Below are positions 23,904 to 64,000 of a stretch of DNA of 64,000 bases, in pieces. The first letter of the stretch is position 1, and every line of letters starts with the position of its first letter. The translations under genes and the position numbers were made by a program. The DNA comes from a virus. The notes below the pieces were generated by a model. That model ran no database searches, had not been told where the DNA came from, and saw nothing but the letters and a program-made list of their open reading frames with translations. The stretch lies in IMG/VR virus record IMGVR_UViG_3300037465_000316. One strand, written 5' to 3'.

Positions 23904-24554
23904 TTATTTCACCGCGCAGGTGACTGAACCGCTCCCGTGGGCAACAACATAGTAAGTGCCTGGTGGAACGCTTGGCACGGTGCTATCCAGAGAAAAAGAC
24001 CCGACTTTAGTTACAGTCCCGCCTCCTAACGAAGCTGTAACGGTTGCGGTCGTCGCCACACAGGTGGCCTGCAAAGTATCTACCTGGTTGGTGAAAGTAA
24101 CAGTATAAACCTCACCATTTGAGAAGCCATAACCAGAGACATTGAGAGGCGCACCCGCTGTGCCACTGGCGGCGCTTGTCACCAACGCCGGCTTCAAGCT
24201 CGCAGTGTAACTGGAGTTTGCAGAATTGTTATCGTTTTTGGCCTTAACGGTCACATTCCCGAATAAAATGGAGCGAGGTATCTGGATACTCGACGTAAAC
24301 ACCCCACTTCCATTTGCCGGACCTCTGGCCATCCGCACGTTATTAAGTTGAATCTCAACCGTCTCCCCGGCTGCGAAACCAGAGGCGGTAAAAACGTGCG
24401 TCTCAATGGGCTTGATAGTCACCGGGCCGGTGATCGCTGCGGCTGTAACCTCGAACTGCTGCGCCGGCTGCGCCTGGACCTCCGGGAGCATCCATAATGC
24501 ACCCGTAATCATCCCCAGCGCCAGTATAAGTGTGGTTAATAGTTTTTTGAACAT
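23904..24554 (-). CDS. secreted protein with signal peptide and two Ig-like repeats
   Basis: MFKKLLTTLILALGMITGALW..VQA signal; repeats ASGFAAGETV..G.F..SIQIP..G and GYGFSNGEVY..GSF...VP..PGTY. Confidence 0.7.
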   Translation of the reverse strand: MFKKLLTTLILALGMITGALWMLPEVQAQPAQQFEVTAAAITGPVTIKPIETHVFTASGFAAGETVEIQLNNVRMARGPANGSGVFTSSIQIPRSILFGNVTVKAKNDNNSANSSYTASLKPALVTSAASGTAGAPLNVSGYGFSNGEVYTVTFTNQVDTLQATCVATTATVTASLGGGTVTKVGSFSLDSTVPSVPPGTYYVVAHGSGSVTCAVK

Positions 24555-24602
24555 GAAAGTCTCCTTAAACTAATGAATAAATGGCGGCTCAGGTTTCAGA
24601 AC

Positions 24603-25688
24603 TTAGGCTACGGGCATCGGGTAAGATGCTTGAGCATTACTCAGGATAAACTTGAAATAGTCCTCGGCCAGCGTTGAATCTGCCTCGACAGCAACCCCGG
24701 TTACGTTCATCATTAGTAATTCATCTCCACTGAGCTGGATAGGGTCATATCGCCAATCAACCTTTGGAGCTTCGATACGAAACGTCCAGGGGAATGGGAC
24801 TGCATCACTGATATCGCAGGGTGATTCAACCTCAAGCTGTAAATCTGTATATTCACAACATGGTCGGAAGTCCAGAGTGGCCGGATCGCCGCCATTGATG
24901 ATGAACCTATATAAGTCAGGGTTATCCCACTTATAGGTAAACTCGATGGTCAGACTACGCTGCCGAGTAGTGAAATCCTCCGGGAAGTAACTCCCAATTA
25001 CCCGCTCTTCCTGGGGAGTGGACGTGTTGTTATTTAGCGTCACCCTGGCGTTTGTAGCTGGCAGAGGCACACCCCCACCAAAGACCCAATTGGGCAGTAG
25101 TAGACCACTACCCTTCATCACCATAGGCACAGAGTCGTAATTCTCCGTAACATCTGCCCAGGCGAATAGATCGGGGGCGTTATCGAATAAGAACTCCCTG
25201 CCGAGAATTTGAAGATCAGTAGATAGTGGTCCCACTTGGGGGTAGTTAATAACCATCGTCGGGATAATACAGTCTTTTCCCGTTTCGCCGAGGTCCTTAG
25301 TAGTGTCCCGGCCGGGAATCACCCGCCGAAATCCCATGAACGGGATAAAGATAGCATTACCCGGTTTTTGGGTAAATGTGTGGGTGAAGCCAGTAGTCGC
25401 ATTGGCGACACTGGAGCAGTTACCCGCAGCTCCGAGCAAAAGCCAGCCAAAGTCTCCCTCTAGCCGGGGCTGAAGGCTAACCCGGCCTCCGAACCCGGCC
25501 CCGGTCTTATATGCCCCTGTTGGGTTATTAATCCCCGAAATCTCCGGGGGCGCTACTTCTTTCTGAACATCTGGCCCGTATCCGGCAAACAAGGCTTTGT
25601 GGCGATACCAGGTCCCTACCGGCTGGCCCTTCTCACCATTCGCCTGTATCCCGAATCCGAACAGTCCTGCTTGTGCTGTTACAGACAT
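24603..25688 (-). CDS. major tail tube protein
   Basis: 361 aa, beta-rich, between neck genes and chaperones; FTHTFTQ motif. Confidence 0.75.
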   Translation of the reverse strand: MSVTAQAGLFGFGIQANGEKGQPVGTWYRHKALFAGYGPDVQKEVAPPEISGINNPTGAYKTGAGFGGRVSLQPRLEGDFGWLLLGAAGNCSSVANATTGFTHTFTQKPGNAIFIPFMGFRRVIPGRDTTKDLGETGKDCIIPTMVINYPQVGPLSTDLQILGREFLFDNAPDLFAWADVTENYDSVPMVMKGSGLLLPNWVFGGGVPLPATNARVTLNNNTSTPQEERVIGSYFPEDFTTRQRSLTIEFTYKWDNPDLYRFIINGGDPATLDFRPCCEYTDLQLEVESPCDISDAVPFPWTFRIEAPKVDWRYDPIQLSGDELLMMNVTGVAVEADSTLAEDYFKFILSNAQASYPMPVA

Positions 25689-25694
25689 GTTTAG

Positions 25695-25725
25695 ATCTCC
25701 CTTTAATTATGAGGCTCAGGGAGAT
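25695..25725 (-). promoter_or_regulatory. SD-sequestering hairpin in the tail tube leader
   Basis: mRNA AUCUCCC-UGAGCCUCAUAAUUAAA-GGGAGAU, then 6 nt to AUG. Confidence 0.7.
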
Positions 25726-27732: not shown

Positions 27733-29199
27733 TTACATTGCTGTGCCAGTACCCCAAGTGGGCGGCGTGCCACCGTGAAAGATAATGTGATGAAATTCGG
27801 GCATGAAGAGCTGGTATTTGAACCGGCCCTTCCAGATAAATCTGTAGATCGCCCTGGCATCATCAATTGGTGGCATCGGATAGGCCATGATTGGATCGGC
27901 CACACCATTGACCACGCTTGGACCACCAATGTAGAGCGTTACGTGAATGTGGACACCTTTTGTCACAAAGTCGCCGGCGTTAAACTCACTAAACAGCGGT
28001 TTGTCGAAGGTTATCTTGTTGCCATCCTTACCCACGATACGTCGAACGCGAGCAGTAGCCTCACGATAGTCCACCCCGTCAGGAGTAGAAACGCCAAACT
28101 CGTCGGTCGTGGTCTGGTGAATGGTGACCAAATCATTGACCGCGAACCCACTAGCGTCATCTACCTCAATCCAATGCTCAACGTTATTCTGCTGGCCGAC
28201 TTTGTAAACCTTATCAACTAAGTCAGGCGACCCACCATCACCTGGGCCATAATCCATCTGCAGGACGCCCCGGTGAATTACATCGCCACAGTTCCAGAGA
28301 ACATTGCGCCGGCTATTGATGAACCGGGTATTGGCCCACATGCCCACTTCGTACCGCATCAAGAGCTGCGGGTTGCCGTACAGGTTCGCCTCACGCCATT
28401 GGGTGTTGGCCGCTGCAATTACGGCGTTGATAGCCGATGGAGTTGTGATAGAGAACAGAGTCCCCTGCACCCCATTGGGGTTCGCAGCAAAGGGGATGTC
28501 CTCATAGGACAAATCCATCCAGACATCTCGGCCAAGATTTACATTGAACACGTCAGTGTTCAGAATGCCGGTGAACTGTGGTTTGCCGGAAGCATGGCCA
28601 TGACTAACATTGCCACCGGCGATTGTATGGAATCGCGGTCCCTCAAGAAAAGCATTTCGCGCAAGAATGTCGAGAGCAATCGTCATACTCTCTCCGAGCA
28701 TCGTTCGGGCCAGATTGACCAGTCCGGGTGTTCCCCGAAACAAGTATGCTTGTACCTGGTCGTCGTACTCGTGTAGAGCGACCTTATCTGCATAATCAGC
28801 AAACACGATGGTCTTTTCAAACGTATCCGTGTAATTGCTAGAAAACCAGATCTGTCGCCGACCGACTTCCCCATAATTCGGCTCCATCGCAAAGACACCC
28901 TTGAAGGTCATACTTTCGCCTATACTGCCGTTAGGGTTACGCATGGCGATTTGGGTGGGCACAAGAGCGCGGTAAACGCTGTCTAGCCGAAACTTCTCCA
29001 ATAGAGCCAACTGAACGGGAATATCGCGCAGACTTTCGATCTGATACCACATATTGTCCGAGTATAAACCCGGACCCTGAGCCGCATTCAACGGGTTGAC
29101 CAGGGTCAGCGGCTCCTGAGAGCCATGTTCTAGCCTGGTCGAGTATGCGTGCGAGGACGCTGCCGTCCCCGTACCTGGATAAACAAAATTTACTGGCAT
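27733..29199 (-). CDS. major capsid protein (N4-gp56-like)
   Basis: 488 aa after the scaffold; LGESMTIALDILARNAF, ITTP..I..V, YEVGMWANTRFI, YIGG motifs. Confidence 0.85.
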   Translation of the reverse strand: MPVNFVYPGTGTAASSHAYSTRLEHGSQEPLTLVNPLNAAQGPGLYSDNMWYQIESLRDIPVQLALLEKFRLDSVYRALVPTQIAMRNPNGSIGESMTFKGVFAMEPNYGEVGRRQIWFSSNYTDTFEKTIVFADYADKVALHEYDDQVQAYLFRGTPGLVNLARTMLGESMTIALDILARNAFLEGPRFHTIAGGNVSHGHASGKPQFTGILNTDVFNVNLGRDVWMDLSYEDIPFAANPNGVQGTLFSITTPSAINAVIAAANTQWREANLYGNPQLLMRYEVGMWANTRFINSRRNVLWNCGDVIHRGVLQMDYGPGDGGSPDLVDKVYKVGQQNNVEHWIEVDDASGFAVNDLVTIHQTTTDEFGVSTPDGVDYREATARVRRIVGKDGNKITFDKPLFSEFNAGDFVTKGVHIHVTLYIGGPSVVNGVADPIMAYPMPPIDDARAIYRFIWKGRFKYQLFMPEFHHIIFHGGTPPTWGTGTAM

Positions 29200-29202
29200 T
29201 TT

Positions 29203-29241
29203 ATATTTACTCCTTATGAATTAGGCTCAGGGAGTAAATAT
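29203..29241 (-). promoter_or_regulatory. SD-sequestering hairpin in the capsid leader
   Basis: mRNA AUAUUUACUCC-CUGAGCCUAAUUCAUAA-GGAGUAAAUAU, then 3 nt to AUG. Confidence 0.75.
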
Positions 29242-31882: not shown

Positions 31883-31911
31883 AGACTATCAAATTTTGCA
31901 ATCAAACTCAA
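31883..31911 (-). promoter_or_regulatory. late-class promoter for portal
   Basis: TTGAGTTTG (-35)-17 nt-TAGTCT. Confidence 0.65.
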
Positions 31912-47191: not shown

Positions 47192-47404
47192 GTGATACAC
47201 AAACACACAATCACAGTGGTTAGTGGTAATGGCCAGGTCAACACCATACAGGAGAATAGCCTTATGGTAGAGGACAGGGTCGGCCAGGTGATGGTGAATA
47301 GCCAGGCTCAGATGGTCACGGTCAAAGGGCCTGACCAGAAGGTAGAGGCTATCTACTTCCGTAGGGGCAGCACCTGGGGCAAGGTAGATTGTGGCAGATG
47401 CTAG
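47192..47404 (+). CDS. hypothetical protein
   Basis: GAGGAGG RBS before GTG. Confidence 0.55.
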   Translation: MIHKHTITVVSGNGQVNTIQENSLMVEDRVGQVMVNSQAQMVTVKGPDQKVEAIYFRRGSTWGKVDCGRC

Positions 47405-47472
47405 GGACAATCCCGTGAAAGCCGGGATCAGGCGAGAGCCTGCTCCGCTCAAATCTGAAAGGAGACTGCGCG

Positions 47473-48401: not shown

Positions 48402-51206
48402 ATGAGAAAGACAACAATCTTCCGCTACGTACTTCAAGCAGCCGGACTAGCCCCGGAGATGCGCGGCCACCGGCACATGAGCGAAGACGCCGCCAATTTC
48501 ACCACGAAGAATCAACCTGGCCTGACCTTTCTGAAGGTTGATGTGAAAAGCAATTTCAAGAGCCTCGACGCTGAGAATATGCTTACAACCTGGCCGGTGC
48601 TGGACAAAGAAGGCAAGAATACCGGCGCCGAGGCGATCTACTGCGGGCACGGAAGTTCGGTTAAGCACGGCTATGTTTATTTCCTGGTCGTTCGGAGAGA
48701 CGGTCAGGAGATAGTTGAGGCCACAGACTACCTGGTGAAAGCCTGGGAGATGTTAGGTATCAGCGAGAACCTCTACCGTTTCGGTGCTCACCTGATGCCC
48801 AAGACAATGGCTTCTCTAACCATGAACGGAGCTAAGGTGATGGGTGTGCCTGATGGCTCAATCCTGTACTGCTCGGATGGTAAGAAGTCCTTGTTCCGAG
48901 ATGGGCACGGCGTCATCAATAAGAGCCTGAAAGCCCCCCTGATGAAGCAGAAGCCGCGAGTGTTTCAGTTCAAGGATGGCAGTCTATTGACCCCGACAGT
49001 CTTTAGCCAACTTGACTTCAGTCAGGCGGTTGCCGATGAACTTCTAGAGGGCTTCGAGAAGCGCAGCAAGGCGCTGACTTCTGAATCCTACTTCAAGTTC
49101 GTGCAGGCCAGCCGCTTTGGAAACGAGCGGGGTGAAAACCTGATAGGTAAATCCATCTTTGCTGATGTGGCGATGATGGAAGAAGTTATGGCCGAGATTG
49201 CCCGAAGGGGAATCAACGGCGAGGTTCAGAACTTACTCGCCCGACACCCAGCCTTCTCACCACGCCTGGCCAAAGGGTTGGCGAGAGATATGTATAAGGT
49301 GGCGACCACCGGAGGACTGAAAGGTACGTACTACAAGATAGCCCCCTGCCCAAGTCTCCCTGGGGAAACCGAGCCGGTTATCATTCGCAAATCCAACAAA
49401 ACCGGCAAGGCCCTGGTCATTCGCTACCCGGTGAGCGACAGCAAATCAGTGCTGGCCGCAACCTCGAAAGAGGACCGACTAGACTTCAAGGGCGAGATGG
49501 TGCAGCTCCGGGTTACGACGAAGAATCTAACCTGGTCGGCCAAAGGCACAGCCACCTTCCGAAACCTCGAAAGCGCGTACATCATCACCCCGGACGGAGA
49601 GCGAATCGAAGTACCATCTGACGCAGCCTACATTTGGGGCAGCGAGGATCAGAAAATGCCCTGCAAACCCAACCTGATGGAAGTCATCACCGAGGATATT
49701 GAGGTGATGATAACCGAATGGTATCGGCCGGCAGATGTGGCTCTAATGCCCTGTGGCTATGTGGATGGCGTTTATCACGAAGAGCTTGACCACGCCCACA
49801 GCCAGAACGCCGATTTTGATGGCGATGGGGTTGTAGTCAGTTGGGTAGGCAATCGGCCAAATCTCTGGCAAGCCTTCAAAGCCCTCAACGGGACCGAGTT
49901 GGCTGTGGCCAAGATGAAGAAGTCAAAGACGCCTTTGGTCAAGTTCAGCAACCTCAACGAGTTCCAGGCCAACAGCACGACCGTCTATCAAATGATCGGG
50001 CGCTCGATTGCGGATTACGTTGGCCAGGTCACAAACCTGATGCAGCGTTATCTGCTCTACAGCCCTGCCCAGCGCGAAAAACTGGCACAGGCCAGGTTCA
50101 ATATGAGCCGGCTCGAACTTGAGGCTGAGTTTGCTTTCTACCTACAACTGGCCGTTGACCTGTTCAAGTTCAACGATAGCGAGCTGGTGGAAAAGCTGGC
50201 CCGGTTCATTGCTCACGTCGAGGCCGTTTTCAGGCTGGAAGCCTCGTTGTTCAATGAGGGCGATGGCCTGGGCAAAATCAAAATGGGACACGTCGGCAAA
50301 GACAAGAACCAGGCTAACCTGGGGAAAGGTTATATGTGGTTCACAAACCACATTCCAGAGGTAGATGAGTTTGCCGGTTGCGATGGATTCATTCCCTCTC
50401 TGATGCGCCAGACGCTGGCCAGGGACGAAAGCGGCAATTTCGTCCTATGGGGTGCTGAGATTGCCAACAAGGGAATCTTGCCCAATGCCACGTACCAGGT
50501 GTGGGTAGCACCGACAAACCAGCGCGCCCTGAAGCTAGCCGGTGAGATCAAAGAACGCTACGGCAAGGAGGCTTACGGCCTCGCTGTTGGCTACGAGGTC
50601 GAATCAGGCAACGGTGAAGATGTGCTAAAGAGTGAGTGGCTGGACTTCATCACCGAGTTTCGGGCTGAGATAGTCGAGCAGGCCAGGCGTGAGCGTATCA
50701 GCCTGCAAGACCTGTTCGACGCTCTATGGTTTAGCTATACGAATAAACCTGACCAGCAAGGCGACCAATCAATGCCGATCCTGCTCCTACCGGAACAGTT
50801 CTTCGGGATGGTCGAGCGACTGATCAAGGACGAGTTCGGCCAGTGGGTTCATCCTGACCTGAAAGGCAAACTCATTGATAAAACCCAGTGGCTGCCGCTG
50901 CTAAATATCTCGCAGCAGTGGGTCAACTATCCAGAGTCGCCATTGGTCAAGGGGTTGGACGGTAAGGCCATCGTGGTTGAAGCCCAATGCCACGAAGTGG
51001 TTCGTTCAGGCCAGAAGAGAGTAGTCAGTGTGGTAATTCCAGAGGATGATGCTTACGAGGCTCATCTGAGAGAAGCCAAAGGGTTGCCGCTGGGCAGCCT
51101 GGGCTACACATTAACCACCTACGAGGGTAAGTTCAAGGCTATGTTCAGATGGACGCCGGGAAAAACCAACGGCGGCACAATGAATGTGGCTCTAATTCCA
51201 GCTTAA
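48402..51206 (+). CDS. single-subunit double-psi beta-barrel RNA polymerase (YonO / cellular RdRP-like)
   Basis: DGHGVI (48900), IRYP (49422), QLR..KG (49503-49547), NADFDGD (49806-49826), VGQVTN, QLAVDLFK. Confidence 0.9.
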   Translation: MRKTTIFRYVLQAAGLAPEMRGHRHMSEDAANFTTKNQPGLTFLKVDVKSNFKSLDAENMLTTWPVLDKEGKNTGAEAIYCGHGSSVKHGYVYFLVVRRDGQEIVEATDYLVKAWEMLGISENLYRFGAHLMPKTMASLTMNGAKVMGVPDGSILYCSDGKKSLFRDGHGVINKSLKAPLMKQKPRVFQFKDGSLLTPTVFSQLDFSQAVADELLEGFEKRSKALTSESYFKFVQASRFGNERGENLIGKSIFADVAMMEEVMAEIARRGINGEVQNLLARHPAFSPRLAKGLARDMYKVATTGGLKGTYYKIAPCPSLPGETEPVIIRKSNKTGKALVIRYPVSDSKSVLAATSKEDRLDFKGEMVQLRVTTKNLTWSAKGTATFRNLESAYIITPDGERIEVPSDAAYIWGSEDQKMPCKPNLMEVITEDIEVMITEWYRPADVALMPCGYVDGVYHEELDHAHSQNADFDGDGVVVSWVGNRPNLWQAFKALNGTELAVAKMKKSKTPLVKFSNLNEFQANSTTVYQMIGRSIADYVGQVTNLMQRYLLYSPAQREKLAQARFNMSRLELEAEFAFYLQLAVDLFKFNDSELVEKLARFIAHVEAVFRLEASLFNEGDGLGKIKMGHVGKDKNQANLGKGYMWFTNHIPEVDEFAGCDGFIPSLMRQTLARDESGNFVLWGAEIANKGILPNATYQVWVAPTNQRALKLAGEIKERYGKEAYGLAVGYEVESGNGEDVLKSEWLDFITEFRAEIVEQARRERISLQDLFDALWFSYTNKPDQQGDQSMPILLLPEQFFGMVERLIKDEFGQWVHPDLKGKLIDKTQWLPLLNISQQWVNYPESPLVKGLDGKAIVVEAQCHEVVRSGQKRVVSVVIPEDDAYEAHLREAKGLPLGSLGYTLTTYEGKFKAMFRWTPGKTNGGTMNVALIPA

Positions 51207-58077: not shown

Positions 58078-58725
58078 TTAGGCGAAAACGCCTAAGATCA
58101 TATTCCCCAGGGTAACATGTGCTTTCTCAAGCTCGACCGGACCAGATGAGCCATTGATGTCGAGCCACTGGACGCCCTTATTGAGCTGCTTCGCCGGGTC
58201 ACTTAGAGCGAAGTCATGCAGGGTGTAAACCACTGCATTGCCGGTGGTATGAATCTGGTAGGCATAGGCCAGCGATTCTAAGACAGTGCCTTTGTAAAGG
58301 CTCTTATTAGTAGGTACGGCCTTTTGTTGAATGATAATATTCTTCACGTCAGACCAACCAAACCGGAAATTATTGGTCAGGTGAGCCATAAAGGTGAGGT
58401 CGTTATCCAAGACTATGCCCTGACCGTCAGCGGGGTCGAGGCTGATGACATCAACAATATCAACGGCGCCTAAATTTTCCACATTTAGAAATTCCCGCTC
58501 TGGAACAATAGTAAACAATTCATTTACGGCCACCTGAGCCACATCAAAGGCCATGAGCGCAAAGACGAGGATATGCTTTAGTTTCCCCCTAAAAATCACC
58601 TCTGCATCCTGCACCCAGGCGGTAAGTGAAGTCCGGCCATTTGTTGGATCTCCTATCTCATCACTGGCGAAACTGATATTTTCCACGATGAGATAGTAAA
58701 GCTGTTCGAGTTTGCGACGATCCAT
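58078..58725 (-). CDS. hypothetical protein heading the lysis-like cassette
   Basis: AAAGGAG RBS before ATG 58725; no catalytic motif recognised. Confidence 0.6.
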   Translation of the reverse strand: MDRRKLEQLYYLIVENISFASDEIGDPTNGRTSLTAWVQDAEVIFRGKLKHILVFALMAFDVAQVAVNELFTIVPEREFLNVENLGAVDIVDVISLDPADGQGIVLDNDLTFMAHLTNNFRFGWSDVKNIIIQQKAVPTNKSLYKGTVLESLAYAYQIHTTGNAVVYTLHDFALSDPAKQLNKGVQWLDINGSSGPVELEKAHVTLGNMILGVFA

Positions 58726-58753
58726 AATTCTCCTTTGGCTCAAAGTTTTTCCT

Positions 58754-58822
58754 ACTTTAACGAATTTTAGACGCAAACTCAATAGAAAATCTATTGAGTT
58801 TGCTCCTGGAATTTGCTAACGT
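58754..58822. promoter_or_regulatory. back-to-back late-class promoters
   Basis: Inverted repeat GCAAACTCAATAG-AAAAT-CTATTGAGTTTGC (58773-58803); minus TTGAGT-17-TAAAGT; plus TTGAGT-17-TAACGT. Confidence 0.75.
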
Positions 58823-58828
58823 AGTTCC

Positions 58829-58948
58829 AGGCTCAGGGTGAATGGCTCGGCCAAGAAAACACCCGGCATGGATGACCGGGCTGGCCGAGCCTAAATTACT
58901 AAGGCGCTTCGCGCCTCTCAAAAGCGACCTCACCAGGTCGCTTTTTTT
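58829..58948 (+). ncRNA. candidate structured small RNA (~120 nt)
   Basis: Bounded by a promoter and terminator, no ORF. Stems GGCTCGGCCA/TGGCCGAGCC, CCCGG/CCGGG, AGGCGC/GCGCCT. Confidence 0.7.
58920..58948 (+). terminator. intrinsic terminator
   Basis: AAAAGCGACCT-CACC-AGGTCGC followed by T7. Confidence 0.85.
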
Positions 58949-58957
58949 GTTAAACTA

Positions 58958-58983
58958 TGATAAAATGGTGATTAAATAATCAC
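58958..58983 (+). promoter_or_regulatory. extended -10 promoter with operator
   Basis: TG-A-TAAAAT(58961); GTGATTAAATAATCAC at 58968-58983. Confidence 0.7.
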
Positions 58984-59004: not shown

Positions 59005-59328
59005 ATGGCAGACCCTCGTTACAAAAATGGCGTATTCACCAATACAGCCAGAGCCAAAAAGGACGCGCAGCGTCAGCAGGCCAATGCACTTGAACAAGCT
59101 CATCCTCTGTGCCACGGCTGGACCGTAGCTTACACCCACCCAGAGCTTAAGAAAGTAGTGTACGAACAGGCCGGATATAAGCTCATGGCCTGGAATGAGT
59201 CCGATTGGATGCTCCAACCCCCTGGAGCAGAAGACCCCCTAATCCTCGAAGGTTACAACATCACAGAAATCACGGAGCTTATAAAAAATGGCACAACAAC
59301 AGAAGAAATTATCAGAAGAACAAATTGA
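59005..59328 (+). CDS. hypothetical protein
   Basis: AAAGGA RBS; 107 aa. Confidence 0.65.
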   Translation: MADPRYKNGVFTNTARAKKDAQRQQANALEQAHPLCHGWTVAYTHPELKKVVYEQAGYKLMAWNESDWMLQPPGAEDPLILEGYNITEITELIKNGTTTEEIIRRTN

Positions 59329-59587: not shown

Positions 59588-60137
59588 TGTTTTATACGAC
59601 AAAAACAAAAAGCCGCGTTACATCCTACCCTGCGCGGCCTACGCCAAGAACAGGGCAGGAGATACTGTCTACTTCGAGATAGTCTCGAACGCAGTCCAGC
59701 CGGTCAATGCGTTTTGGGCTAACATTCGCTGTAACTGGCGAACGACCCAACTCACACCTACCTATATCGCCATCTACGACCAGGACCATAATAAGGAAGT
59801 TCTCTCCATTGTACCCAGGGAGAAACGCCATTACGGCGCTAAGAATGGTCACCACTTCATGATGCATGAAGGGTTCGACAAGCTGCACCTGGAATATCTT
59901 CTGGGGGGCAGCCCCACCGAACCGGCGCCGATGTTTGAAACGGCGCTGCGCCAGTATGTTGAAGCCCCATTTCTCTCAGCCTGGACACAAACACTATGGG
60001 AGGCTGGCATTAACCAGAAACTAATCACAGAACTCTCAGCAGTAGGTATGACCGGCTGGAGATTAAGCAAAATCGCTAAAGGTTGGCAGGAACTCATCAT
60101 CAATCTTAGAAATCAAGGAGAATTACAACATGGCTAG
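59568..60137 (+). CDS. hypothetical protein
   Basis: 189-aa coupled ORF. Confidence 0.65.
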   Translation: MSKHLYSVLYDKNKKPRYILPCAAYAKNRAGDTVYFEIVSNAVQPVNAFWANIRCNWRTTQLTPTYIAIYDQDHNKEVLSIVPREKRHYGAKNGHHFMMHEGFDKLHLEYLLGGSPTEPAPMFETALRQYVEAPFLSAWTQTLWEAGINQKLITELSAVGMTGWRLSKIAKGWQELIINLRNQGELQHG

Positions 60138-63100
60138 ACTGGCCAGCCAGGAGAAGGCGCTTCATGTGCCCACTCCACTAACCATCATTCAAAAGATTCG
60201 CAATCATCTGCGTGGATATGGATCAAGGGGAATCATCTTTGACCCCTGCCTCGGCACAGGCGCTGCGGCAATTACCCTGGGGAAACTCCTGGGGGAAAAC
60301 TGGCAGGTGTATGGGGTCGAGCTGGATATCCAGCGAGCCGAAGAAGCTCAGAATCTACTCGGTAAGGACCATGTCATCAACGACTCGTTTCAAAATGTCC
60401 ATGTCACCGGCAATTGTGACCTCTTGTTCCTAAATCCACCCTACGATGATGACAGGGGAGAGCGGATGGAGCTTCAATTCTTGCGCTGGAGCCACAAAAC
60501 TCTCAGGAATAAAGGTGTTCTGGTCTACATTGTCAAGGATAAATTTGTTGACCAGGGCCAATACTCCGAGAAAACTCTAAAGCTTCTCAGGTCATGTGGC
60601 TTCTCCGGCGTCAAGGTGTTCAAATTCACCGAACCTGAGTACAGCGACTATCAGCAAATTGTGCTACTGGCCAAGAAGCTGGAGCATGGATATATCTCTA
60701 ACGGTGACATGGCCATAAAGGGTGAGATTGGCTGGGTCCCGAGCGGATATAGCGACTACCAGTATGTGCAGTATCTCGACCTCCGGCCGGAGAGCCAAAA
60801 CGACAATGACATGCATCTGGCCAGAAAACCAGGGAAAGAGCAGATAGTCTCTTTGGTCGCCCAACAGAATTGGTCGGCCTTTGAAACCCTGATCGGCAGC
60901 CCGGAAGATGCAGCCCGGCTCAAGCCATTGACCAGGCTCAAGGATACTAACGCAGTCCTGGTAGCCTGCTCCGGTCTGCTCAATAACGCGGTGATTGATA
61001 ACCGGGTTATCAAGGGCAGCACCTTTATCTATAAGGCAGTTAAGGGGAAAGTGGACCGCGAGGACGGGGGTACGGAGTGGAAGGTAGTTGAGGAAACGCC
61101 TACACGGTTCACTATCCTGGACTTGGCCACCAATACGATTTCATCCATAGATGAAATAAATAACAGCGATGAATACACCAGCTTTCTGGTAGCTAATGCT
61201 CGCCAGTTTGTTGAAGCCTGCGTGACGAATTACCCCCCACTTTACCGGCCGGAGCGCCACCGGCTTAATTTCAATCATCTCAACCCACCCAAAAAGCTGC
61301 CTGGCCGCGAAGATGCTCGTGGAGCTTTGCCAGAGCAGGAAGAATTGATGTCCGCTGTTATAAGAGGTCTTAATGGCCATAAAATCATAAACATCATTGC
61401 CCAGATGGGGGTAGGAAAAGCACAACCTTTAAATGCCAAAATTCTAACTCCAAAGGGGTGGAAGTTGATGGGAGAAATCAAAGTGGGTGACAAAGTATGT
61501 ACTCCCGATGGAGAAAACTCCATCGTTATCGGTGTATTCCCTCAAGGAGAAAAGGACATCTATCGAGTGACATTCAATGATGGCAGTTCTACAGAATGCT
61601 GTGAGGATCACCTGTGGGCGGTCAATTCTCCCTGGCGCAACTGGATGAATATGCCTTATCAAGTAAAGCCACTAAAGAAGTTCATGAACAACTTGGCTCA
61701 CAAAAATGGAAACCGACAAGTATTCATCCCAATGACCAAACCGGTCGAGTTCGAGGAGGAACATGATTTACCATTAGACCCATATCTTTTGGGAGTCTTA
61801 CTTGGTGATGGTGGGTTAACAGCTAATATTCCTTATCTTTCTACAGCAGATCAAGAGATTCTTGATTCTGTAAAAGCGCTACTTCCCGAAGGAGTTGAAC
61901 CAAAGTATGCAGGAAAGTATGATTATCGTCTATCCAAATCAAATGGGAAAATAGGTCATGGTCATACAAATCCACTAACCGAAATACTGCGAGATTTAGA
62001 GTTGATGGGCAAAAGCTCATGTCGAAAATTTATACCTAATATCTATATATATTCTTCAGTTAAAGATCGAATAGCCCTGCTTCAAGGTCTAATGGATACT
62101 GACGGTCATGTGGGACATAATCCAAGAGGTAGCTCATCAATTCCCGAATTTTCTACATGTTCCAGTGAACTGGCAAAAAATGTTCAGGAATTGATACAAT
62201 CTTTGGGTGGAAAAGCTGTCATAGCTACCAAAAAAACTGCCAGACAACTATCCTATAGATTACATATCAGCCTACCTTATGGAATCAACCCATTCAGACT
62301 GAAACGTAAATCCGAGACCTTTATACCCAAAACCAAATATCAACCTGTTAGGTGTGTTGAGAAAGTTGAATATATTGGGCGCAAAGAAGCGCAATGTATC
62401 TTAATTGATCACCCTGACCACCTATACATCACGGATGATTACATCGTAACTCATAATACTCTTCAATCCATCGGCATTGCCTACACCTACCTGGTGCAAA
62501 AGAAGTGGTTCAACAAGAAAATAGTGGTTCTCATCCCCTCCACGCCGGCAGACCTGGCGAACAAATGGATAGGTGAAATCAAGACAGTTCTCAAAGATCA
62601 GTTCAAGGCCGGTCAAGTGTGGGCTGCTCAAGCCGAGACGATCACCGATATTCAAAAAGCCTTTACCCGGCCGGGTATTGGCTTCATCGTCATCCGAGAA
62701 TACTACGCGAAGGCTGATAGTCCTTGGCTAACCGTAAACGCGCCGGCGCGCCGGGAGAAGATCGAAACAGGTGTGAAGGTCAGAAACCCAGAGACAGGCC
62801 AATTCGAGGATGAAAGTATAATCGTCAAGATTCGCTACTGCCCTTCTTGTCTCCAGCCCCTGACAGAGCAAGAAAAGGATATCCTCGATACCAACTTTCT
62901 CAAAGAGAAAGAGGCTGAGAACGAGGGCAAGAATCGCTACTCGGCCACCGGCCGAAAAATGCTCACCTGTCAGGATGTATACGACGATGGCAATCTTATC
63001 AAGAAAGGTTGTGGTAATGCTTTCTACACAAAGCTAAGAGCCGACTCCCTGGGGAAATATCCCCTGGCCAGGTACATCCGAAACCACTATGCCAGGCAGT

Positions 63101-64000
63101 ATTTTCTCATCGAGGATGAGTGTTTTCCTGGAAACACTCTAGTAGAAACCATTAATGGCCCTATCCCGATCAAAGATGTAAAGGTAGGGGACTTGATTCT
63201 AACCGAGAAAGACGGGGAATTAACCTACCGAAAAGTAACCCGTACTTATATCCAACCAAAGCTCAAACCAATGGTTAAGGTTACTCACTCGCATGGGAGC
63301 TTCATCTGCACATGTGACCATAAGGTTTTTGTAAGTGACAAAAAAATCGAAGCTCGACATCTTAATACAGGAGATATACTGACCCATGCACAACCGACCG
63401 TGCAAAGTTTGCGGTTGGATAGTGCTGAGATTCTGGAACAGCGAAATCGAACGGGATCTCCCTGGGGTAATCTCAAAAATTCAAGAGTGTGTAAAGTCGA
63501 GAAAATCTCAATCACCGACGAACTAATTTATGACCTTGAAGTTGAAGATACCCATAGGTACTTTGCTAATGGTATCCTGGTTTCTAATTGCCATGAGTTC
63601 AAGGCCGGTAGCTCCAATCGCGGCTATGCAGCCCAAGACCTCATTTCGGCCTGCATCTGTGGCATCCAGATGACAGGAACTTTCTTTAACGGTAAAGCCT
63701 CCGGGGTTTTCTACATGCTTTACCGTTCCTCACCAACCTTTCGTCAGATGTATGCCCACAATGAGTTGGGCAAATTCGTGGATGTCTATGGCGTCAAGGA
63801 GCAGGTGTTTAAGGAAGTTCCAGTGCGAGATGGCGGCAGCGGCTACTCTGGCTACCGCCGAATCGAAGGAGCGCCTCGTGAGGCTCCCGGTCTGCACCCC
63901 AGCCTGGCCAGCCTGATTCTCCCAAACACTGTTTTCATGTCCAAGTATGATCTCGACTTTGACCTGGCTCCCTACTCAGAGCACACTCTGTACGTCAAGC
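60130..64000 (+). CDS. N6-MTase (DUF6094-like)-SF2 helicase fusion, 3'-partial, with two inteins
   Basis: MARLASQEK; FDPCLGTG; FLNPPY; QMGVGK|T; EDE|CH. In-frame at the positions I translated; no stop seen to base 64000. Confidence 0.85.
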   Translation, partial: MARLASQEKALHVPTPLTIIQKIRNHLRGYGSRGIIFDPCLGTGAAAITLGKLLGENWQVYGVELDIQRAEEAQNLLGKDHVINDSFQNVHVTGNCDLLFLNPPYDDDRGERMELQFLRWSHKTLRNKGVLVYIVKDKFVDQGQYSEKTLKLLRSCGFSGVKVFKFTEPEYSDYQQIVLLAKKLEHGYISNGDMAIKGEIGWVPSGYSDYQYVQYLDLRPESQNDNDMHLARKPGKEQIVSLVAQQNWSAFETLIGSPEDAARLKPLTRLKDTNAVLVACSGLLNNAVIDNRVIKGSTFIYKAVKGKVDREDGGTEWKVVEETPTRFTILDLATNTISSIDEINNSDEYTSFLVANARQFVEACVTNYPPLYRPERHRLNFNHLNPPKKLPGREDARGALPEQEELMSAVIRGLNGHKIINIIAQMGVGKAQPLNAKILTPKGWKLMGEIKVGDKVCTPDGENSIVIGVFPQGEKDIYRVTFNDGSSTECCEDHLWAVNSPWRNWMNMPYQVKPLKKFMNNLAHKNGNRQVFIPMTKPVEFEEEHDLPLDPYLLGVLLGDGGLTANIPYLSTADQEILDSVKALLPEGVEPKYAGKYDYRLSKSNGKIGHGHTNPLTEILRDLELMGKSSCRKFIPNIYIYSSVKDRIALLQGLMDTDGHVGHNPRGSSSIPEFSTCSSELAKNVQELIQSLGGKAVIATKKTARQLSYRLHISLPYGINPFRLKRKSETFIPKTKYQPVRCVEKVEYIGRKEAQCILIDHPDHLYITDDYIVTHNTLQSIGIAYTYLVQKKWFNKKIVVLIPSTPADLANKWIGEIKTVLKDQFKAGQVWAAQAETITDIQKAFTRPGIGFIVIREYYAKADSPWLTVNAPARREKIETGVKVRNPETGQFEDESIIVKIRYCPSCLQPLTEQEKDILDTNFLKEKEAENEGKNRYSATGRKMLTCQDVYDDGNLIKKGCGNAFYTKLRADSLGKYPLARYIRNHYARQYFLIEDECFPGNTLVETINGPIPIKDVKVGDLILTEKDGELTYRKVTRTYIQPKLKPMVKVTHSHGSFICTCDHKVFVSDKKIEARHLNTGDILTHAQPTVQSLRLDSAEILEQRNRTGSPWGNLKNSRVCKVEKISITDELIYDLEVEDTHRYFANGILVSNCHEFKAGSSNRGYAAQDLISACICGIQMTGTFFNGKASGVFYMLYRSSPTFRQMYAHNELGKFVDVYGVKEQVFKEVPVRDGGSGYSGYRRIEGAPREAPGLHPSLASLILPNTVFMSKYDLDFDLAPYSEHTLYVK
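61420..62457 (+). mobile_element. class 3-type intein with LAGLIDADG homing endonuclease
   Basis: Ala1 (AQPLNAKILTP); block B CCEDHLW; LLGVLLGDG and LQGLMDTDG; QCI...IVTHN|T. Confidence 0.9.
63121..63588 (+). mobile_element. mini-intein in Walker B
   Basis: CFPGNTLV...CTCDHKV...YDLEVEDTHRYFANGILVSN|C; 156 aa, no endonuclease motifs. Confidence 0.85.

Follow-up and report, generated by a model that had tools for sequence, protein, structure and literature searches.

The intergenic locus and its surroundings

Between the leftward 216-aa (lysis) gene and an operon transcribed to the right lies a divergent intergenic region of 276 nt, and within it an ORF-less unit of about 120 nt (58829-58948, plus strand) that combines a promoter, an unpaired 5' end AGGCUCAGGG, three stems and an intrinsic terminator (Table 1). 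All positions refer to the window, the whole 64,000-nt stretch of phage DNA that was analysed; the source record is 79.9 kb long in its public form and originates from a freshwater metagenome, the only runs with a DNA match being freshwater metagenome DNA. Because related prophages sit in Anaerolineales and Caldilineaceae MAGs, the host phylum is probably Chloroflexota. A blastn search of the locus against INPHARED gave no match, and the phage is without DNA relatives there.

The two structural genes of concern encode a major capsid protein (MCP) of the N4-gp56/DUF4043 type and a tail-tube protein (Phage_tube_2). The public gene call for the MCP is 439 aa long (P0001); given that homologs of 489-496 aa align along the full 488-aa ORF, the start codon of the record is probably too far downstream, and the leader hairpin described below lies before the long (488-aa) form. 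Elsewhere, the phage encodes a free-standing RNA-polymerase-like protein, as read by the earlier note on this DNA, and its plus-strand gene block contains a match to the twister-sister ribozyme. At least two intein-like insertions interrupt the ORF of a DUF6094 methylase-like/SNF2-type helicase gene, one of them splitting the Walker A motif between GVGK and THN; these insertions are absent from the relatives L005 and P0141, and L009 has a LAGLIDADG hit. In two relatives a small gene with an Acb2/Tad1-hairpin Pfam hit, which we take to mark the anti-CBASS/Thoeris sponge family, sits between the portal and scaffold genes (L001, 962-1189; L002, 4955-5185).

Table 1. Features of the small RNA locus, its predicted targets and other elements of the window
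Feature	Position	Strand	Details
216-aa (lysis) gene	58078-58728	-	left flank of the sRNA locus
Mirror promoter of 216-aa gene	58754-58782	-	TTGAGT-N17-TAAAGT, same class as the sRNA promoter
sRNA promoter	58794-58822	+	-35 TTGAGT 58794-58799, 17-nt spacer, -10 TAACGT 58817-58822, then N6
Predicted 5' end and seed AGGCUCAGGGUGA	58829-58841 (core 58829-58838)	+	unpaired in the fold; co-varies with leaders
Stem-loop 1 (SL1) core	58844-58891	+	10-bp outer stem, inner hairpin with loop GGCAUGGAUGA
Stem-loop 2	58903-58915	+	GGCGC-UUC-GCGCC; identical sequence in L005
Intrinsic terminator	58920-58948	+	11-bp stem, T7 run
Next-operon promoter	58958-58983	+	extended -10 TGATAAAAT 58958-58966, palindromic operator GTGATTAAATAATCAC 58968-58983
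Rightward operon	starts 59005	+	right flank of the sRNA locus
MCP gene, N4-gp56/DUF4043-type	27733-29199	-	
MCP leader hairpin	29204-29240	-	10-bp stem hiding GGAG; target CCCUGAGCCU 29223-29232; ATG 29199
Tail-tube gene, Phage_tube_2	24603-25688	-	
Tail-tube leader hairpin	25695-25725	-	8-bp stem hiding AGGGAG; target CCCUGAGCCU 25712-25721; ATG 25688
Partial target CCUGAGCC (8 nt)	24586-24593	-	Ig-gene leader; gene 216 aa, 23904-24554
RNA-polymerase-like protein	48402-51206		free-standing; from the earlier note
Twister-sister ribozyme match	47393-47461	+	39.3 bits vs Rfam gathering threshold 34, E = 3.8e-05
DUF6094 methylase-like/SNF2-type helicase gene	60130-63999	+	intein-like insertions

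Promoters and operator

The earlier note had placed the -10 element of a late-class promoter at 58817-58822, and it stands there, with a -35 element now read upstream of it. An extended form of the promoter motif, CTATTGAGTTTG-N-TAnnnT, occurs at only five sites in the window, namely 58794 on the plus strand and 58782, 31911, 23836 and 14061 on the minus strand. The copies at 31911, 23836 and 14061 lie inside the structural module, so that the motif is shared with structural-module and lysis promoters; the late-class label is reasonable on this ground, and the motif may represent a late promoter class.

The promoter of the next operon is different, and its layout is kept in L005 and L009. It carries the operator GTGATTA-NN-TAATCAC, of which the window holds six copies (2387, 34847, 34936, 38832, 52243 and 58968, plus strand) against 0.17 expected. 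The copies directly follow promoter -10 elements, and the operator recurs in L005, L009 and L126; it is probably a phage repressor site for early or middle promoters.

The small RNA unit

Directly after the -10 element and 6 nt, the sequence reads AGGCTCAGGGTGA at 58829-58841. We infer the transcript and its 5' end from this promoter geometry, which agrees with the start at 58829 that had been predicted. The unit was said to be bounded by a terminator, to lack an ORF and to form three stems, and this description holds: the 120-nt RNA has a predicted fold of -56.6 kcal/mol (z = -5.4), in which nt 1-8 are unpaired with P >= 0.95, leaving the proposed seed free. The loop of the inner hairpin of SL1 is also found in L095. 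Read on the opposite strand, the terminator has only 4 U past its stem. One ORF of 45 aa does fall within the unit (58842-58979), and it was rejected as a coding gene as it is not kept in homologs. A search of Rfam 15 with the unit returned nothing at gathering threshold, the best hit being isrD with 19.7 bits against a threshold of 37. The unit is intergenic and the mRNAs of its neighbours start outside it, which sets it apart from cis-antisense RNAs of the lambda OOP and P22 sar type, which overlap their target gene on the opposite strand.

Complementarity to the leaders of the virion genes

The window contains the exact 10-mer AGGCTCAGGG at three positions (58829, 29223 and 25712), against about 0.12 occurrences expected for one 10-mer. 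On the minus strand its complement, CCCUGAGCCU, lies at -33 to -24 from the ATG of both the MCP and the tail-tube genes, within the leader hairpins as the earlier note had reported. In each of these hairpins the SD is located in the 3' arm and the target at the junction of the 5' arm and the loop, such that both full targets consist of the last 2-4 nt of the anti-SD arm and the first 6-8 loop nt. The 8-nt match that had been noticed in the leader of the Ig gene is there as well (24586-24593); this leader carries the 8-mer CCTGAGCC, that is 8 of the 10 nt, with no clear SD hairpin, and the equivalent leader in L001 also carries CCTGAGCC. Both full sites fall inside intercistronic spacers of 44-52 nt that have no promoter-like elements, and they lie 29.6 kb and 33.1 kb from the sRNA, with no overlap.

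When the seed was paired with all 24 leaders of minus-strand genes, the three named leaders ranked on top, with duplex energies of -21.9 for the tube, -21.4 for the MCP and -17.6 for the Ig gene, and among these three only the MCP and tube leaders form clean local hairpins that sequester the SD. Shuffled leaders matched the 10-nt run in 0-3 of 2000 trials. A few coding-region sites across the whole window give duplex energies similar to those of the leaders; energy alone, therefore, cannot single out the leaders, and it is their position and conservation that do so.

Two further possibilities were considered and rejected. Read on the minus strand, the copy of the motif at the sRNA locus might act in cis in the mRNA of the 216-aa gene; this fails because the promoter of that gene starts downstream of the copy, which is therefore absent from that mRNA. 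A 14-mer complement on contig C106 of genome G002 is not in a gene leader. The leader of the 216-aa gene itself (58729-58745, minus strand) shows partial seed complementarity just upstream of its SD, UGAGCC, with equivalents in L005 (CCCUGGGCC) and L095 (GAACCC) and none in L007, L009 or class B (defined below); it may be a weak fourth target, or the match may be due to chance.

Conservation of the unit in related phages

Nine further syntenic units were found at loci of relatives, here given L-numbers: L005, L007, L009, L095 and L096-L100. The syntenic region was located through the 216-aa protein in L005/L006, L007/L008 and L009, whereas L095 was reached by walking along the 88.7-kb contig Ga0613794_000030, which also carries L004, and L096-L100 are five prophage copies in Anaerolineales and Caldilineaceae MAGs that came from a scan of species genomes. 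The related prophage loci (L096-L100 and L122-L125) belong to genomes G001-G003, two of which hold two copies each. One of their capsid genes, G003:C4:800283-801653, has an internal TAA.

The loci follow a common plan: the promoter has a 17-nt spacer, and a conserved block at the 5' end is followed by a structured, diverged body and a terminator with its U-run on the same strand. In 8 of the 10 units exactly 6 nt separate the end of the -10 element from the first seed purine; the layout TTGAGT-N17-TAnnnT-N6 is kept in L005 and L009, L095 has N9 before the seed, the promoter of L007 is ambiguous, and the class-B promoter is TAGTTT-N17-TAYGMT-N6. Across the nine further loci, conservation is confined to the spacing of the promoter and the first ~13-17 nt, the body diverging while keeping a long stem-loop and the terminator. 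Among the class-A homologs the seed is the sole conserved block, and the five class-B units are identical in their first 17 nt. Further, the closing stem in class B shows U.G/U-A exchanges and the terminator GC/AU exchanges, both of which fit this strand only. A conserved 5' end followed by a diverging structured body is the pattern typical of sRNAs with a 5' seed. The right-hand neighbourhood varies: a separate promoter with operator serves the next operon in the window, L005 and L009, and in L007, L095 and class B the SD of the next gene directly follows the unit (its terminator or SL1), so that in these three the RNA may be a terminated RNA derived from a leader.

The other partner is likewise kept. 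The MCP has many metagenomic homologs, and the leaders of four of these keep the hairpin and the junction motif with different stem sequences. Counting the prophages, the hairpin is retained with compensatory stem changes in L001, L002, L004, L126 and L122-L125, and in the capsid leaders of all lineages the complementary block lies at the junction of the 5' arm and the loop. Strong SD-sequestering leader hairpins also precede distant capsid genes of the N4-gp56 type (28-49% identity; L131, 5930-6003; L139, 4200-4280; and L141); these contigs are too short to show whether a matching RNA is encoded, so the lock may predate the sRNA family and reach beyond it.

Wider searches added no further units. 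IMG/VR was scanned with one capsid protein sequence and with the 216-aa protein, alone and as an alignment, and nothing was found; a capsid alignment run against IMG/VR gave fragments only, a pattern search in three of these records (19-32% complete) finding the leader itself and nothing else. A metagenome scan with the N-terminus of the DUF6094/helicase protein returned 80 distant loci (25-41% identity), none with the unit, and a search for the 216-aa protein in 401 Chloroflexota genomes found only the genome already known.

Co-variation of seed and leader

The seeds and leaders of these phages fall into three classes. In class A, the seed AGGCUCAGGG of the window, L005 and L009 (with G at position 1 in L007) corresponds to the leader motif CCCUGAGCC(U) of the window, L001, L002 and L126; within the window this pairing, AGGCUCAGGG with CCCUGAGCCU, is realised twice. 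In class A', the seed GGGUUCAGGG of L095 faces CCCUGAACCC in both the MCP and the tube leaders of L004, on the same contig at a distance of 32 kb. In class B, the seed GGGUUUUGUGGGAGC of Anaerolineales prophages faces GCUCCCACAAACCC in the MCP leaders, with pairs found within genomes (L096/L122, L098/L123 and L100/L124, three prophages in two Anaerolineales genomes) and 18-32 kb between sRNA and MCP leader. The further class-A pairs, L005/L001 and L009/L002, each combine different contigs that come from one sample or from sister samples. The leader motif varies slightly in L002 and L126, the A-to-G change in the L002 capsid leader giving a G.U pair.

Were the RNA to pair in trans, any change of the leader motif in a relative should be mirrored in its seed, and this held twice, on contig Ga0613794_000030 and in the three prophages. 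Both sides change at 5 of the 10 core positions (positions 1 and 4 between A and A', and 6-8 between A' and B), and in the aligned helices no pair is broken in the MCP leaders of any class. The class-B MCP leader forms a 12-bp hairpin that sequesters the SD, again with the motif at the arm/loop junction, and its duplex with the seed comprises 11-12 bp, a bulged U and then 3 bp; class B has a 1-nt bulge (UUUU against AAA) or a bulged C, and its sites differ by a central 1-nt indel. Such a bulge and the A-to-G (G.U) variant are the kind of change that RNA pairing tolerates. A cross-matrix of duplex energies is block-diagonal, with cognate pairs at -21 to -28 kcal/mol and non-cognate pairs at -12 to -19 kcal/mol, apart from combinations in which G.U pairs permit cross-pairing. 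Shuffled leaders rarely reach the cognate runs. The tube leaders of class B show no clear hairpin and no significant complementarity in the shuffle test, so a role of the tube as target may be confined to the clade of the window.

A predicted switch for virion protein synthesis

Taken together, the observations make a functional pairing of the sRNA seed with the leaders very probable from sequence comparison. That a trans-acting RNA of about 120 nt opens the leader hairpins and thereby activates translation of capsid and tube is a further step, which we prefer and regard as probable. A more far-reaching reading, with a probability of roughly 0.55, is that a clade of Chloroflexota (Anaerolineae-type) phages and prophages uses an sRNA from a late promoter as a natural, loop-initiated toehold trigger that unlocks the MCP and, in the window's clade, the tube, with seed and lock co-evolving into orthogonal pairs.

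The sRNA would be made from a promoter of the class found in the structural and lysis modules, and its single-stranded 5' end, AGGCUCAGGG, would first pair with the loop of the MCP and tail-tube leader hairpins and from there open 2-4 bp at the end of the anti-SD arm, or, in the related prophages, 5 nt of the arm by way of an SD-like GGGAGC in the sRNA. With the hairpin destabilised, the SD would be exposed and the most abundant virion proteins would be translated more strongly from the polycistronic late mRNA; the leader of the Ig-like gene would be a weaker target, as might that of the scaffold gene in some relatives. The pairing in vivo, the positive sign of the regulation and its timing are predictions.

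Folding calculations are partly in keeping with such a course of events. The predicted site of the seed is on the anti-SD side, away from the SD or AUG, and in class B its SD-like GGGAGC rivals the genuine SD in pairing with the anti-SD arm. When the target nt were blocked in constraint folding, the SD, almost never free otherwise (about 0), became unpaired in most leaders with a probability of 0.34-0.87; in the MCP leader of L004 SD exposure goes from 0.25 to 0.20 and nothing is gained. The cost of opening, 6-13 kcal/mol, is smaller than the gain of the duplex, 21-27 kcal/mol. Binding on the anti-SD side and predicted exposure of the SD therefore favour a loop-initiated strand invasion. For the capsid leader of the window, a plain cofold MFE keeps the hairpin, and no more than 2-4 nt of the anti-SD arm lie under the class-A seed; opening would consequently have to begin with binding in the loop, a step that such programs capture badly. 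That a conserved hairpin hides the SD of the proteins most needed is best understood if something opens it.

If true, the scheme adds a post-transcriptional layer to late gene control, explains the hidden SD of the genes needed in highest copy number, and constitutes the first sRNA circuit described for phages of Chloroflexota. Mutually orthogonal seed-lock pairs could also serve as a compatibility barrier to combining the regulatory module of one phage with the structural module of a relative, and the three naturally diverged pairs would be ready-made orthogonal riboregulators.

Alternative explanations

Chance complementarity of unrelated sequences might draw on the coding sites of the window that give similar duplex energies, yet three exact 10-mers against ~0.12 expected, and the recurrence of the relation with different sequences in independent lineages, effectively refute it. 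More serious is the proposal that the trans pairing is real and its outcome something other than activation, with a non-productive complex that delays or represses translation, or with RNase III-type guided processing of the late mRNA. All of the evidence on pairing and co-variation fits this equally well; the class-A seed meets mostly loop nt, the cofold MFE retains the capsid stem of the window, and RNase III cuts RNA duplexes, for which a perfect duplex of 10-14 bp is a plausible substrate. Repressors, however, usually bind the SD or AUG, whereas the site here, on the anti-SD side, precedes the SD by 5-10 nt or more; moreover, the GGGAGC of class B and the SD compete directly for the same arm, constraint folding points to an exposed SD, and a conserved SD-hiding hairpin on the most needed proteins is best explained by an opener. 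Repression or processing is accordingly judged unlikely as the outcome.

The two remaining proposals do without the trans pairing of RNAs. The motif of 10-14 bp might be a double-stranded DNA site for a co-evolving phage DNA-binding protein, either a late regulator or a stoperator-like factor, as all copies lie on the same DNA strand, a concerted change of all sites within a genome would be expected in this case too, and the phage evidently uses another DNA operator in six copies. Stoperators, as in mycobacteriophage L5, are nonetheless many (tens of) identical, asymmetric intergenic DNA sites in one orientation relative to transcription, and the motif has three exact copies and one partial intergenic copy; that at the sRNA is oriented opposite to its own transcription, and the class-B copies differ by an indel. 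Two of the sites fall in the short intercistronic spacers that lack promoter-like elements, the position is fixed to an RNA hairpin arm/loop junction and to the promoter +1 in every lineage, and the 1-nt indel of class B and the A-to-G change of L002 that keeps a G.U pair are tolerated by RNA and unlikely for a DNA site. With the conserved structured body and terminator also left unexplained, a DNA site is highly unlikely. A still fainter prospect is that the unit is only the 5' leader or attenuator of the operon starting at 59005, its terminator setting the read-through and the RNA having no role in trans, the motif in the virion gene leaders being read by an RNA-binding protein, as Com of phage Mu reads the mom leader. 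Protein activators that open SD hairpins do exist, Com and mom being the example, and in L007, L095 and class B the SD of the next gene comes after the terminator or SL1, so that read-through would be needed. In the window, L005 and L009, on the other hand, the next operon has its own promoter and operator, and nothing in this proposal explains why the capsid leader is matched exactly by the complementary first 10-14 nt of the unit, or why the two vary together. The two roles are non-exclusive.

Comparison with known systems

Known phage sRNAs act mostly on host genes, on lysis-lysogeny decisions or on immunity. The closest mechanistic precedents are the bacterial anti-antisense activators, such as DsrA, RprA and ArcZ on rpoS, GlmZ on glmS, and RNAIII on hla, with which the unit shares a trans RNA that has its own promoter and terminator and a conserved, single-stranded seed that would pair with the SD-sequestering strand and so release the RBS. 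It differs in being phage-encoded and aimed at the phage's own virion genes in a late operon, in a pairing that would start in the loop and cover part of the anti-SD arm, and in having no sequence or Rfam relation to them. The c4 RNA of P1/P7 and the CI RNA of P4 are immunity repressors processed from the operon they control; similarly to the unit, they are small RNAs that recognise short, repeated complementary sites in transcripts of their own phage, but they block translation or terminate transcription, whereas the unit is independent, with its own promoter at the seed and targets in another operon 30 kb away, and is predicted to activate late genes. The zinc-finger protein Com of phage Mu opens a hairpin in the mom leader that sequesters the SD and start; here too a late gene is locked by an SD hairpin, and a phage trans factor would bind beside or within its 5' side and open it, the difference being that Com is a protein and the candidate factor in the present case an RNA. 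Synthetic toehold switches likewise have an RBS-hiding hairpin that a trigger invades, and orthogonal sets of seeds and targets, compared with which the unit is natural, has a short invaded stretch and a function that is predicted only.

Among phage sRNAs, PreS (LPR1) of lambda raises translation of the host dnaN by exposing its RBS; its characterised targets are the host genes dnaN and alaS, it depends on Hfq in E. coli, and lambda targets were left for later (bioRxiv 10.1101/2024.10.31.621285). Both PreS and the unit are base-pairing phage sRNAs that raise (as predicted for the unit) the translation of one gene of an operon through exposure of the RBS, and they differ in that PreS targets host genes, whereas the predicted targets of the unit are the capsid and tail-tube mRNAs of Chloroflexota-type phages. 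IsrK of the Gifsy-1 prophage activates the prophage mRNA orf45, and then anrP and antQ (PMC12197685). Like the unit, it is encoded by the same element as the mRNA it acts on, whose translation it raises (as predicted for the unit), but IsrK acts on a neighbouring regulatory cassette and the unit would act on structural genes 30 kb away, and no multi-target seed with co-varying leaders is reported for IsrK. None of the phage sRNAs listed in a 2025 review (PMC12197685) acts on the synthesis of capsid or tail. The earlier note knew of no described equivalent, and with neither a match in Rfam nor a counterpart in that review, a phage-made RNA switch for virion protein synthesis, as predicted here from sequence, has not been described before. 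The mechanism belongs to a known type, and the novelty lies in its targets (the major virion proteins of the phage itself), in the host group and in pairs of seed and lock that co-evolve.
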